This document shows positions 48,133 to 52,569 of a stretch of 64,000 bases of DNA, piece after piece. Source of the stretch: an uncultured bacterium (GTDB lineage Bacteria; Fidelibacterota; Marinisomatia; Marinisomatales; UBA1611); assembly GCA_965660855.1 (NCBI GenBank), contig CBFIBM010000007.1, positions 4,061 to 68,060 of the forward strand. Reading direction: 5' to 3'. How positions within the stretch are numbered: the first letter of the stretch is position 1; every line of letters starts with the position of its first letter. The notes under the pieces were generated by a model, which saw only the letters and a program-made list of their open reading frames with translations, made no database searches and was not told the DNA's origin. The translations under genes were made by a program, and so were the position numbers.

Positions 48133-49681
48133 GAGAAATTATAGTTTCGCAGTTTCTAAAATATCTTAAAATTATAATTTTATAAACTGATTTTTTTTTA
48201 AGAAAAAAAATATAAAAAAAATTAGTATAAAACAAAAAATACAGTAGCCTTAAATTTAATTTATCTTTTTTTATGAGTGCTATTTTTTTATTTTTTTTTA
48301 TTTTTAATATTTTATAATTGTTTATCTAAACAAAAAATTTTTTACATTTTTTTTGGGGGAAATAGAATATTTTATTTGGGAAAAAAGTCACAAGATCTAT
48401 TAGTTATAAAATCAGATAATTAATTAAAAGAATTCTAGAGTTTTTTTAATCAACATTTTTAATATAATTGAATTTTTATTTAAATGATGATAATAAAAAA
48501 AATAACTAAAATATAGTTTATAAGATTGTATATAATTTTTACTTATTTGATATAATTAACACTTTTATTAATTATTTAATTATATGATTCAATATTGAAT
48601 TATTTAGTTATTTTTTTGGTCAATGTATTTTATATAAAATTCACTATTCTATTTGTCTTTTTTTTTTAACAGTGTACAATTTTTAGACATAAGAGTTCCT
48701 AAACAAATATATGTTTATTTCAATATAAAAATATGTTGATATAAAAGAATGTTTATAAATAAAATATTAAACATAATCAGAAAATGATATGGAATTATTT
48801 AATAGAATTTATTTTGATTATGAACTAAAGGTCGATGGAAAATTAATAAAAGATATAGTAAAAATATATTGACAAAACATTGACTTTTTTAAATGAATTA
48901 TGGAAATAAAGAAAGATAGTATGTTTTTTAAAGAATAGTTAAACATTGACTATTATATCTTAATAAATCGAACAATTATCTTTTTTTATCAACTAATGAA
49001 TTTATGTTTATTAAGTAGAAATATTATTTTATTTTTTAATGAGATCATCATTAATGGTATAGAAATATTTTGAATAATAATAGATTGAAATAACTCTTAA
49101 AAATTAAGTATACATATATTAAAAGAGTACTGTTTGAAGATTAAATCTCAATCTAGTTAAAACTGTAAATATATTATTGAATTAAATATTCAATATGTTT
49201 CAATAAAAAAATATAAGGAGATTGAAAAATTATTAAAAAAAATGTGGATATCTTAAATGAAAATAAAGATTATTATTATTTATAATTCTTATAATTATTT
49301 GACTAAATCTATGTATTATATTGGTACACTAGAATTAAAATTAAAGTGTTCCTATAAATAAAATTACAAGGGGTTGGATATTTGTTTTTTCAAAAGATAA
49401 TAAATGAGTTTTTTTTAAAGTTTTTTTTAATAATTAACATATGATTAATGAGGATTAGATAAGTTTATATTCTATGAAATTAATTATAAGTTTATAATGA
49501 TGATATTATAATTATTTATAATATGACACTTGAAATATTTAAGATGATTTAGAAAAATAAAATAACATATTATTATCCCCAGTAGCACACTAAACAATTA
49601 ATAGTTTTGTAATATTAAAAATAATTTTTATTATTTTTAATAAATAATTCTAATAAATATATTTGTAAAAATTATTAATTA

Positions 49682-50216
49682 TTTGTGCTATTTATATATA
49701 TTAAATATTTATTTCATGAATATTTAATTATATCTTGTATCAATTATTTGTTATTTATCTAACTAAAATAAATTTTTTTAACAATATTATTTTAAATAAT
49801 AGCACCTAATATTTATAATATGTAGATATATTATTTAGTTTTTCCATATAATTTTCATATAATCAATTCAATCTTACATATATAAATATTTTTAATATAT
49901 GTATAATTGTATAAATAATTTGATATATAATTTTTTAGGATATATCACTCTGGATTTTCAATATAATAGATACTCAATCAATAATTATTATTTTAAATAA
50001 ACACATCTTTATAATGTGTAATTGAAAATTAAAAATTAATTTATTTTTAAATATTATATCATATTTATCATGTAGATATTTAATATTTTTTAATGTTAAA
50101 TATTCATTAAAATATCAAAATAACCATGATTATCTGATTTGAAAACACTTTTATTGACCATCAGATCAGATATATACACTTGTATTAAGTTTATTTTTTT
50201 TTGTGCTATTTATATA
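49682..50216 (+). repeat. 17-bp direct repeat TTTGTGCTATTTATATA (49682-49698 and 50200-50216)
   Basis: exact duplicate read from the sequence. Confidence 0.85.
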
Positions 50217-50428
50217 ATTTAAAAAAAATAGTTTAAATAAATATTTTTTATAAAAATATAAAAAAGGTTATTTTTATACTCAATTTATGAAAATTAGTAT
50301 GATATAACTTTTATAAATCTATAAATTTTATTCTACAATAGAAGATATATAAATTCAGTTATTTTAATATCTAATAATTTAATTTATATTAAGATTAATT
50401 ATAATAGTGTGCTAAATTTAAAAGGTTT

Positions 50429-51148
50429 ATGAATATTTGTATAAAAAATAATATAAAAAATTTTAAAGAAGTAAATTATTTAGAATTATTTGAATCAGTA
50501 AAAAAAAGTAATTATAAACATAATTTAGAAAACATGAAATTCTCTGATACGATATTTAACTTTAAAAGATATCTCAAACCTAACTTGAATGAAATCCAAT
50601 ATGCAAATCTTGATCAGTTACCTAATCTTAATGAGGATATTGAGAGAACAAGAAGAATCTATAAAAGGATTCAAGAATTCATACCAAAGAAAATTTTGCA
50701 CATACAATCAGAGAAAATCACATTAGATAAACAATCCTTTCGATTAACTATTCAACAGTATAAAAAGTCTAATTCTTTGATAATGGATAAATTAAAAAAA
50801 TGTAAAAATCAATCTAAAGAATATAATATAGAGATAAAACATAGGATACGATATGTATATAAGATCTATTCTTATGTAATACCTTCACTATACATAATTA
50901 AAAGACCATCATATAATGTGGTCCAGTGTAAATGGAAGTTTATGGGGTTAGTTCAAAAACAAATCCATTTAGGGACATTTAAAAAAGTAGGTTCTTTAAA
51001 TGAGGAAATGTTAAAAAACATATCTATAAAAAAAATTAACGAAAAGTATAACGGTTTCTTTGATAACCTATTATTAAAAAATATTCTTTTGGAAAAGAAA
51101 AAATTAACAAAATGGTGTAATGATATTAATTATAGATCAAAAAAATAA
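50429..51148 (+). CDS. orphan basic protein, possibly DNA-binding
   Basis: 239-aa ORF, Lys-rich, one Ala; stop 2 nt from the MTase stop (convergent). Confidence 0.6.
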   Translation: MNICIKNNIKNFKEVNYLELFESVKKSNYKHNLENMKFSDTIFNFKRYLKPNLNEIQYANLDQLPNLNEDIERTRRIYKRIQEFIPKKILHIQSEKITLDKQSFRLTIQQYKKSNSLIMDKLKKCKNQSKEYNIEIKHRIRYVYKIYSYVIPSLYIIKRPSYNVVQCKWKFMGLVQKQIHLGTFKKVGSLNEEMLKNISIKKINEKYNGFFDNLLLKNILLEKKKLTKWCNDINYRSKK

Positions 51149-51150
51149 TT

Positions 51151-52569
51151 TCAATCAATTTTCAATGAGTTATTTATCCTTCTAATGGACAATTCAACAA
51201 ATCTTTTATTTAATTCATAACCTATAAATTTTCTATTCAGTTCTAAAGAGACTATTCCGGTTGTACCACTTCCTGAAAACGGGTCTAAGATGGTATCTCC
51301 CTTTTTTGATCCACAATTTATTGGTAGGTGACATAATTCTTTTGGAAATACAGCTATATGTTCAATGTTTTCCATTCCAATCTTTTTACCAATAGGTTTG
51401 GAATGTTTAGATTGTTCAATAAAATCCAATGGGATTTTACCTTTGCTGTTCTGTATTATTGATGTGTGTCTTTGAAATTTATCCTGGATAGTATAATGCC
51501 TAGGACTTTTAACTTGAATAGGATTTTCCTGTTTGTAGGGAACTCGAATTGAATCTGCATCGAAAAAATAATTATTTTTTTTTGTAAAAAAAAATATGAA
51601 TTCATTTGATGTACCAAGTCTTGTTTTGACAGATTCTGGTTTTGGGTTAGTTTTATGCCATATAATACAATTTCTTTGTATCCATCCATTTCTCATCATT
51701 TCTATTGCAAATTGGTGAGGTATACTTGATAAACATCCATTAATATATGTATCTCCAATAACAACCCAACAAGAACCATCATCAGATAAAACTCTGTAAC
51801 ATTCATTGAAAACTTCCATTAGGTTTTCAATGTATGCATTTACCGTATCTTCTAACCCGATTTGATTTTTATTACCATAATTCCTATGTGAATAATATGG
51901 TGGGGAAGTTAGAATCATATCTATGGACCTATCCTCCAAATCAGACATGTTATTTGATGATTTATTAAAAATTTTAAAATCTTCATATTGAATTCTATCT
52001 GAGTCGTTTGAAATTTCTTCATTTTTAATAGTTTCTCTAATTTTTTTTCTTTTAGCTTCAATATAAGATTGATTTATAGTTAGACTTCCTTTATCAATTA
52101 AATCAATGAGTGTTGGAAATACTTTATCTATATACATAAGTTTGTAGATTTTATCACCACTAATACTTAATTTTTTTGATAACTTTTCTCGATTTCCACT
52201 TCTGTTGATATCAACAGAAGTTAAATCTGATCTAAAACCCTGTCTTTTTTTATAATATTTTGATAATATTTTTATCTCATTCAATATTTCTCTTGATGTT
52301 TTTACTCTTTGTGAGTTATGTGATATTATATGTAGAGGTTCGTCTTCTAATTTCAAGTCTTTTATGACAACCTCTACCTCTTTAATATTAAGAGATCTTA
52401 ATGCTTCTAACCTCCGGTTACCACTTAAGACCTCATTTTTTTTATTAATAACTAATGGTTCTAAAAGTCCAATTTCTATAATGGATTTCTTTAAAGTTTC
52501 AATATCAGATAATATATAAACCTTAGAATTGAATGGATGATGTTTTAATTCTTTTAAATTGATTTTCAT
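51151..52569 (-). CDS. ParB/Srx N-terminal domain + HTH fused to beta-class N4-C/N6-A DNA methyltransferase
   Basis: LKKSI..IGLLEPL...SGNRR (ParB); TSPPY (motif IV) precedes LDPFSGSGTT (motif I); HIAVFP. Confidence 0.9.
   Translation of the reverse strand: MKINLKELKHHPFNSKVYILSDIETLKKSIIEIGLLEPLVINKKNEVLSGNRRLEALRSLNIKEVEVVIKDLKLEDEPLHIISHNSQRVKTSREILNEIKILSKYYKKRQGFRSDLTSVDINRSGNREKLSKKLSISGDKIYKLMYIDKVFPTLIDLIDKGSLTINQSYIEAKRKKIRETIKNEEISNDSDRIQYEDFKIFNKSSNNMSDLEDRSIDMILTSPPYYSHRNYGNKNQIGLEDTVNAYIENLMEVFNECYRVLSDDGSCWVVIGDTYINGCLSSIPHQFAIEMMRNGWIQRNCIIWHKTNPKPESVKTRLGTSNEFIFFFTKKNNYFFDADSIRVPYKQENPIQVKSPRHYTIQDKFQRHTSIIQNSKGKIPLDFIEQSKHSKPIGKKIGMENIEHIAVFPKELCHLPINCGSKKGDTILDPFSGSGTTGIVSLELNRKFIGYELNKRFVELSIRRINNSLKID
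52198..52221. repeat. 24-bp perfect palindrome ACTTCTGTTGATATCAACAGAAGT inside the ParB-MTase gene
   Basis: self reverse-complementary; in frame, encodes residues 117-124 TSVDINRS. Confidence 0.95.

Follow-up and report, generated by a model that had tools for sequence, protein, structure and literature searches.

Proteins of the ParB family which carry a helix-turn-helix (HTH) bind palindromic DNA sites. The canonical site, parS, is near-universal in sequence and is present in multiple copies near the replication origin, and the ParB-fold HTH proteins KorB (of plasmid RK2) and Noc bind family-specific palindromes, OB and NBS respectively, through which they act on transcription or on DNA organisation. 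The present work concerns a 24-bp palindrome, ACTTCTGTTGATATCAACAGAAGT, found in a 64,000-bp stretch of DNA from an uncultured bacterium of the Fidelibacterota (assembly GCA_965660855.1, contig CBFIBM010000007.1, positions 4,061 to 68,060), which is called the window below. The palindrome lies inside a gene that encodes a predicted fusion of a ParB N-terminal domain, an HTH and an N6/N4 DNA methyltransferase, it recurs at the same spot but with different letters in related genes, and it is a candidate binding site for the protein in whose gene it lies.

Two components of this arrangement are already known. A ParB site inside a parB gene occurs in Bacillus subtilis, where parS-359 is described as lying “within the parB gene” (PMC4442127), and fusions of the ParB CTPase fold to N6_N4 methyltransferases have been catalogued in a 2025 survey, which reports that they are frequent in phages and enriched in prophage regions, that they differ in which nucleoside triphosphate is bound, and that they act “perhaps in anti-defense”, the role of these common fusions still being listed there as unknown (PMC12704722, PNAS 2025). 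Self-regulation by a methyltransferase is represented by the SsoII/Ecl18kI type of enzyme, which represses its own gene and whose own DNA-binding domain recognises an operator and controls expression (PMC2760811).

The in-gene palindrome and its relatives

The original prediction, that a perfect 24-bp palindrome lies in frame in this gene and covers exactly the eight codons TSVDINRS between QGFRSDL and the HTH, was confirmed: the palindrome coincides with codons 117-124 and is followed by GNREKLSKKLSISGDKI. The parts of the gene are as follows.

51151..52569, minus strand: fusion of ParB_N, linker, HTH and N6/N4 DNA methyltransferase, 472 aa (open reading frame; Pfam PF02195 and PF01555)
52351..52545, minus strand: ParB N-terminal (ParB/Srx, CTPase-fold) domain, residues 9-73 (Pfam; invariant columns; profile matches)
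52198..52221, no strand: 24-bp perfect palindrome, identical with codons 117-124
52120..52200, minus strand: predicted HTH, residues 124-150 (AlphaFold2 helices; linker covariation)
52120-52158, minus strand: predicted recognition helix, residues 138-150 (AlphaFold2 helix 138-150)
51187..51924, minus strand: N6/N4 methyltransferase domain, residues 216-461 (Pfam, protein sequence, complex model)

The palindrome lies about 350 bp inside the gene, counted from the start codon, and about 50-90 bp from the codons of its predicted reader. No perfect palindrome in the window is longer, the runner-up having 9-nt arms composed of A and T only, and this one is among only seven with arms of at least 12 nt in the 2,091,952-bp genome (G000), in which its sequence is unique even when up to four mismatches are allowed. 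Among the other long palindromes of the genome are TCTACATTATCATTAATTAATGATAATGTAGA, with 16-nt arms (G000:C1:58374-58405), and an AT-only palindrome with 13-nt arms (G000:C3:60791-60816), while three more, at C6:44917, C43:596 and C5:4241, resemble terminator stems flanked by A and T runs. A contig of 1733 nt from a DNA run (X16) covers the site with zero differences, and the palindrome is therefore not an assembly artefact.

The earlier estimate that such a palindrome is a few-percent event per 64 kb was borne out by a chance model in which 2 of 200 simulated first-order Markov windows of 64 kb reached arms of 12, and the probability of a perfect palindrome given the peptide and the codon usage of the genome is 1.1e-4. 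Chance figures for a single window are not compelling by themselves across a scan of many windows, and it is the relatives which decide the matter. A metagenome scan yielded 80 loci (loci from metagenomes are designated L, genomes or records G, and contigs X), 62 of which gave a tblastn match across the linker; after removal of duplicates and of rows in which the eight codons are interrupted by a gap or insertion, 38 remained, so that with the window the dataset comprises 39 distinct codon-anchored rows of 48 nt, containing 28 distinct 24-mers.

In the 39 rows a standard pair is formed by 81.8% of mirror cells, compared with 58.9 +/- 1.4% in shuffles (none of 500 of which reach the observed value), and when the partner columns are slid by one to three positions the pairing is 33-50%. 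Both sides of the pair have changed in 11 of the 12 pairs, for a total of 94 cells against 23.7 expected, and the covariation score is 0.551 versus 0.152. When the 28 distinct 24-mers are examined individually, all 12 pairs are formed in four, 11 in two, 10 in seven, nine in ten, eight in one and seven in one; the remaining three form at most four pairs at this register, their palindrome, GGTGTCAATGTTGACACC, being shifted by 3 nt. Five different perfect 24-mers occur at the same spot, in the window and in loci L038, L051, L085 and L251.

The individual replacements are informative about the level at which the constraint operates. Some compensated swaps are synonymous, as when Ser TCT and Arg AGA become Ser TCG and Arg CGA, and elsewhere the S/R pair is replaced by F/K (TTT/AAA), Y/I (TAT/ATA) or S/G (TCC/GGA); in L038 the synonymous change ACT to ACC is matched by AGT to GGT, through which a serine becomes a glycine. 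The perfect 24-mers of L051 (TSGNVAGS) and L085 (TSANIRRS) have different interiors, and in a distant clade KSDQMITF is encoded by AAAAGTGATCAAATGATCACTTTT, in which 11 of 12 pairs are formed. The mirror-image residue pairs seen in linkers comprise S/R, F/K, Y/I, S/G, V/N, A/G and D/I. Such pairs are intelligible only as reverse-complementary codons, and constraint at the protein level cannot account for the changes. The idea that the palindrome forms a self-specificity code survives in part: the palindrome does co-vary directly with the linker peptide, but a simple base-for-residue code was not found.

The same signal can be sought in proteins by computing, for each 8-residue window, the largest number of complementary bases that any choice of codons permits. 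In 112 family proteins of at least 400 aa, with the other windows of the same proteins as controls, a linker window reaches at least 11 of 12 complementary bases in 81 proteins, as against 6.8% of control windows, and reaches all 12 in 36 proteins, as against 0.3%. Among 77 distinct linkers, the mirror residue pairs are fully complement-capable in 46 (residues 118/123), 59 (119/122) and 40 (120/121), whereas the shuffles give 34.2, 30.2 and 20.6, and none of 2000 reach the observed count for any of the three. In a diverse set of 129 representatives of 50% clusters, at least 11 complementary bases are reached in 30, versus 7.5% of controls; the palindrome-capable linker therefore marks a large subfamily and not every ParB-HTH relative. 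A search of 401 genomes of the phylum found longer ParB-like frames in four besides that of the window, and three of the four have a palindrome at the same spot, one of these being the perfect 24-mer AATGGTGACCAATTGGTCACCATT. At distant ParB-like viral loci, palindromes with arms of 9-10 nt occupy the equivalent position in 3 of 31. The examination of homologs proposed originally, for palindromy at the same spot with compensatory changes, therefore has a clearly positive outcome in both the 39 DNA rows and the 112 proteins, and on the evidence of these comparisons the palindrome is not a product of chance.

The constraint is not uniform along the element. Among the 28 distinct 24-mers it is strong at pairs 2 and 5-10, weak at pair 11 (13 of 28 against 9.7 expected) and absent at pair 12 (12 of 28 against 11.1 expected), and because the constraint fades at pairs 11-12 the element is best described as two 10-bp arms with a free centre of 2-4 bp, an arrangement which fits either a hairpin loop or the uncontacted centre of an operator. 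When the window is compared with L032 and with L034, the codons of the palindrome are identical in 8 of 8 cases, while elsewhere 52-53% of codons are identical at identical residues, and a variant contig from an RNA library has four differences no more than 50 nt away from the palindrome, which is itself unchanged. These comparisons indicate that the palindrome sequence itself is kept, beyond what pairing alone would require.

The predicted reader helix and the function of the element

Two further lines of evidence connect the palindrome with the adjacent HTH. Mutual information with average-product correction (MIp), computed over residues 20-185 of 196 distinct N-terminal sequences, has the mirror column as the best partner of the linker columns (119-122, 0.40; 117-124, 0.27; 120-121, 0.26), and outside the linker the block which co-varies best with residues 118-123 is the predicted recognition helix, 137-145, for which the mean MIp is 0.0275, compared with a mean of 0.0011 and a standard deviation of 0.0103 in same-offset controls, 3 of 117 of which reach the observed value. 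The second line of evidence is a natural mosaic gene, L044 (2265-3683). Residues 1-75 and 151-473 of its product are 90-100% identical to L048, but residues ~76-150 are 97% identical to L039 and carry the palindrome and HTH of L039, the nucleotide identity in this region being 0.83-0.88 to L039 and 0.50-0.67 to L048. The exchanged tract, of about 75 codons, takes in the last part of the ParB domain together with the palindrome and HTH, and codons 115-125 are identical to those of L039 while neighbouring codons differ. In a tree with the linker masked, obtained by a quick IQ-TREE search, L044 is placed beside L048 despite its L039 palindrome; the mosaic itself is established separately by the window identities and does not depend on the tree. 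A second pair of loci, L036 and L037, are 80-100% alike save in columns 106-150 (63-67%), where palindrome and HTH both differ. The identities along L044 indicate that its palindrome and predicted HTH were exchanged together as a cassette, and they suggest that a site and its reader can be exchanged jointly, which would provide a simple route to new DNA-binding specificities.

The reading favoured here, to which a probability of roughly 58% is attached, is that the palindrome is a parS- or operator-like site on DNA at which the ParB-HTH module of the same gene docks, and that it is read by a dimer. From the helix covariation and the co-transfer of the cassette we infer that the fusion protein binds the palindrome, and the compensatory changes, the helix covariation and the co-exchange all fit a gene which carries its own site. 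Under this reading the predicted homodimer would read the two 10-bp arms with its two recognition helices, and by docking the enzyme would be tethered or loaded at the locus which encodes it, the probable consequence of which would be that transcription of the gene is damped, or that the methyltransferase is delivered to nearby DNA, or both; delivery might take the form of a nucleotide-gated clamp like that of canonical ParB. Autoregulation and clamp delivery are both plausible by analogy with ParB, KorB and self-regulating methyltransferases. The flexible linker would be the only part of the gene able to tolerate residues imposed by DNA, and the proximity of the site to the codons of its reader would keep both genetically linked as one specificity cassette. 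A site read as DNA is also in keeping with the composition of the outer 10 pairs, in which G:U is not in excess (334 Watson-Crick, 10 G:U, 14 A:C and 32 other cells).

An extended version of this reading, which is offered tentatively and which we consider a good deal less probable than the docking site itself, is that about 200 bp of the gene form a self-contained cassette of address plus reader, that is, a private palindromic docking site and the helix which reads it, that the cassette is diversified and swapped as a unit among lineages, and that a nucleotide-gated ParB clamp carries the fused methyltransferase along flanking DNA from the single in-gene address. If this were true, the system would be one of address-directed, regional DNA methylation rather than a genome-wide one. 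The lineage-specific palindrome gives each such enzyme a concrete candidate binding site, and as this candidate can be read straight from the sequence, binding, nucleotide gating and local methylation are directly testable. Whichever molecule is involved, the case is an unusually clear one of a DNA (or RNA) element dictating protein sequence.

Several observations weigh against a docking site. Compensated differences are found among close relatives whose recognition helix is the same: within the xMKIQRL group pair 5 may be C-G, T-A or A-T, and in L038 pair 3 is compensated. Selection for base pairing predicts such changes directly, whereas to explain them by a dyad operator one must assume something further, for example that one arm serves as a template for correction of the other. 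The helix classes have no one-to-one mapping to the inner triplets, xGNISKL helices pairing with several triplets, and the mutual information signal, which 3 of 117 controls reach, is modest and may reflect contact between linker and helix or shared ancestry. The two central bases are unconstrained and pair 11 barely constrained, as in a loop, and the site lies well inside the gene, about 350 bp from its start, rather than at a promoter.

The copy number of the site points the same way, because no clear second copy was found and there is thus no sign of a site which acts outside the mRNA. The palindrome is single-copy in the window genome and in five of the six genomes or records of relatives searched: in G400 only the in-gene copy was found, in G235 the matches are at control level only, a single copy is present in each of the viral records G405, G406 and G407, and the sixth, G127, has one near-copy with a single mismatch (7/8 matches versus 4/2 in the control). 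No second copy was found in the flanks of 37 of the 39 loci at up to six mismatches; of the two exceptions, L041 has one weak match at that threshold and the second match in L056 is the same site shifted. The pattern ACTTCTGTTN6AACAGAAGT had no matches in viral contigs. Several candidates from the search for dispersed copies or further fusions were rejected: in the KSDQMITF clade, the “arm” matches found 1037 nt downstream fall within the 3' end of the coding sequence, resemble the arm only in part and were judged to be chance, the methylase of phage Tsm2 is not a ParB fusion, and the match in MW202566 is a 507-nt ParB-like gene. Phage Corndog has 27 exact copies of the Cluster O 17-bp repeat (taken from PMC4351075) within 30000-69777, and its gp90, which has ParB_N only, contains no copy of that repeat at up to two mismatches.

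A serious rival to the docking site, although on balance an unlikely one, is an mRNA hairpin with a 10-bp stem and a 4-nt loop at the ParB-HTH boundary, which would control translation rate, co-translational folding or mRNA processing or stability, the DNA palindrome being merely its template. Such a hairpin would yield much of the same covariation, the pattern of which is that expected of a paired stem, and it would account for the compensated changes among close relatives with unchanged recognition helices, for the loop-like, unconstrained centre and for an element which is always within the transcript and single-copy. An 80-nt RNA folds at -17.7 kcal/mol (z -4.06, with none of 200 shuffles as stable), and T:G at pair 3 recurs in five rows; yet G:U is not favoured over A:C in the outer pairs (10 versus 14), and the S/K linkers, which give a mid-stem C:A mismatch, make up 16 of the 77 distinct linkers. 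A hairpin also leaves unexplained the covariation with the recognition helix and the fixed place beside the HTH in a DNA-binding family, it explains the co-transfer of the HTH by proximity only, and an RNA-library contig runs through the site (52085-52342) with no sign of obligatory cleavage, though contigs cannot show ends. It is quite improbable that the element is a structure-forming or protein-bound DNA element used by some other factor, either the 239-aa protein encoded by the convergent neighbour described below or replication or recombination by way of a cruciform or single-strand hairpin. The pairing is conserved in itself, as this explanation would have it, the convergent gene is conserved in 18 loci, and the model of its product, with a three-stranded sheet and helices after a long helical hairpin, comes with a weak AP2-like lead; but palindromes occupy the same spot in clades in which no homolog of the partner was found (L050-L054, L059, L061-L071) and occur in the ParB-like genes of viral records. 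Since palindromes persist in both of these settings, the element tracks the ParB-HTH module, to which the covariation with the recognition helix also points, and no recombinase, tRNA or repeat signatures were found nearby.

The remaining two explanations dispense with a reader of the palindrome as a whole. Quasipalindrome correction, in which intrastrand template switching restores symmetry, is an established mechanism, and it could maintain a functionless palindrome in a mutation-tolerant linker, in which case selection would not be needed for symmetric changes to appear, even for those which replace amino acids. The linker is indeed predicted to be disordered (residues 111-122). Self-maintenance of this kind is nevertheless very improbable: the element, in entirely unlike sequences, stays at one spot in proteins as little as about 35% identical and in distant ParB-like genes; linkers able to encode a palindrome are 10- to 100-fold more frequent than such windows in the remainder of these proteins; the genome has only the seven long palindromes counted above; and internal synonymous sites are frozen while flanking ones drift. 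Least credible of all is the notion that the palindrome holds a target of the methyltransferase, or of a cognate nuclease, such as the central GATATC, and serves methylation-dependent self-control. Other systems are known in which methyltransferase genes are under methylation-sensitive control, and the centre of any even palindrome is a restriction-type 6-bp palindrome, but here the centre is the least conserved part and differs among close relatives with near-identical methyltransferase domains (L031 and L036 versus the window), GATATC occurs 665 times in the genome, and family and fold searches identified no nuclease next door.

The fusion protein and its neighbourhood

The assignment of the domains is based on profile matches and models. 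The PF02195 (ParB_N) match to residues 9-73 scores 28.0 bits, above the cut-off of 26.3 (31.3 bits when the genome was searched), and the first 215 residues, used as a profile, match solved chains of ParB/Spo0J and Noc with E-values from 3.6e-12 to 4e-8 (4umk, 3.6e-12; 7ol9, 1.5e-11). The window reads SGNRRLEA at the SGNRR motif (49-53), in which S49, G50, R52 and R53 do not vary in either of two alignments (26 and 50 sequences), and which we take to be the conserved arginine-rich nucleotide-binding motif, Box II, of GxxRxxA type. In the AlphaFold2 model, which was built on 26 relatives and has a mean pLDDT (predicted local distance difference test) of 73.6, residues 111-122 form a low-confidence loop (pLDDT <50) between helix 92-108 and the helices 124-134 and 138-150, and the latter two are predicted to constitute the HTH; no Pfam HTH model matches the fusion protein at E<=0.01, so that this call rests on the model and on the alignment, in which the consensus ...LGIS..KIYKLLYID... 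is conserved in the HTH region.

The C-terminal part fits a beta-class N6/N4 methyltransferase, as judged from the PF01555 (N6_N4_Mtase) match to residues 216-461 (E 6.4e-53) and from the order of the motifs, SPPY (motif IV, 222-225) preceding FSGSG (the FxGxG of motif I, 431-435), and the PADLOC type II methyltransferase model PDLC03387 matches the protein with E 3e-71. Motif IV (window about 51901-51912) reads SPPY and not DPPY. SPPY is more typical of N4-cytosine than of N6-adenine enzymes, and the names given to homologs in their sources disagree, some being adenine-specific and one cytosine-N4-specific. The protein is predicted to be a homodimer: the complex model has an ipSAE of 0.75 (0.75, 0.74 and 0.75 in separate runs) against 0.00 for the best control, with contact agreement of at least 83% and partner pLDDT of at least 73. 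Of proteins solved as pairs, 20 of 30 reach this mark, as does 1 of 23 solved as single chains. The predicted interface lies in the methyltransferase domain (residues 273-338 and 379-383). Dimers of related methyltransferases have already been solved, and the model's pass may reflect likeness to these.

In a protein database, 6264 homologs at E<=0.001 were found among 7995 scored. No full-length homolog of the fusion gene was found in 60 related genomes, in which the matches are limited to the methyltransferase part; a first contig scan of genomes for ParB fusions found nothing, a second found methyltransferase-only relatives (the N-terminal profile matching 0 of 595 open reading frames of at least 250 aa in L111-L216), and a viral scan with a whole-protein alignment gave methyltransferase-only matches and no ParB fusions. 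The genome has a canonical ParB gene elsewhere (G000:C3:103347-103625, in a 300-aa open frame, with 113.6 bits to PF02195), and the fusion is therefore not the segregation ParB of the cell. As no ParA is adjacent, the flanking open reading frames being those of the 239-aa partner and of FKBP, YidD-domain, NUDIX and HAD proteins, and as the canonical ParB lies on another contig, the locus is not classed as a ParABS segregation system. The closest relatives have these flanking genes in common, from which it follows that the locus is vertically inherited in a marine genome group and is not a recognisable prophage.

The gene next to the fusion, on the opposite strand, ends 2 nt from the methyltransferase stop codon:

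50429..51148, plus strand: convergent partner gene of no known family, 239 aa (conserved by tblastn beside the methyltransferase gene in 18 loci)

Its product has no Pfam, NCBIfam, PADLOC or PHROG family. The AlphaFold2 model (pLDDT 88.9) starts with a small N-terminal domain, which is followed by a long helical hairpin (67-150) and then by a three-stranded sheet (153-182) and more helices, and the invariant residues include R73, R75, K168, W169, H180, W229 and C230. Fold searches yielded nothing informative, with a best E of 0.12 with Foldseek and, for helical segments only, a best Z of 7.5 with VIA, and the AP2-like lead, an Atlas cluster with a score of 0.76, is a weak one, the family being assigned to 10% of the cluster's members.

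Between the partner and FKBP genes lies a stretch of about 2.3 kb which is free of open reading frames (48133-50428; 13-19% G+C), the longest stop-free frame having 64 codons with table 11 and 92 with table 4. A gap of 2.1-2.5 kb is present at the same place in L033, L035, L038 and L049, its sequence not being conserved. A replication origin in this AT-rich stretch was considered and rejected, DnaA-box-like matches numbering 24 against 24.27 expected and no skew turning point being present. A promoter and terminator scan did not rise above chance, with 17 promoter-like sites against 19.3 expected, none of them tied to the palindrome, and Rfam and tRNA scans of the neighbourhood found nothing. 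Contigs of two RNA libraries (X19 and X20) cover 50500-52539, and hence both genes but not their flanks, though such contigs are unable to show transcript ends or levels. The libraries are metatranscriptomes labelled freshwater, their contigs contain 31-36% of the words sampled from this marine-type locus, and carry-over of DNA is possible.

Comparison with known systems

Searches of the literature found nothing in print on an in-gene palindrome of ParB-methyltransferase genes. The main text of the survey of these fusions, as distinct from its supplements, names no DNA site for them and contains neither “palindrom” nor “parS-like” (PMC12704722), and no such in-gene site is named in the available portions of two further ParB-related papers (PMC13229309 and PMC13370423). 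The window member shares its domain architecture with the surveyed fusions (PMC12704722) and differs in its setting, which is a syntenic chromosomal locus of related marine genomes with no recognisable prophage.

Among site-binding regulators, the SsoII/Ecl18kI methyltransferases have an operator that lies in non-coding DNA separating the R and M genes, and a DNA-binding domain which is not ParB-fold, whereas here the sole copy of the palindrome is intragenic, about 350 bp into the coding sequence, rather than in a promoter or intergenic region. Noc chains are matched in sequence by the N-terminal profile of the fusion, but the sites of the KorB-OB and Noc-NBS systems are multi-copy and mostly outside the gene, and the proteins have no fused enzyme. 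The ParB/Spo0J-parS system offers the likeness of a site inside the gene of its reader, together with an N-terminal domain homologous to solved ParB/Spo0J and Noc chains. It differs from the present locus in that the C-terminal part here is a DNA methyltransferase instead of the ParB dimerisation domain, in that ParA is not adjacent, and in that the candidate site is a lineage-variable element of 24 bp placed in the linker before the HTH.

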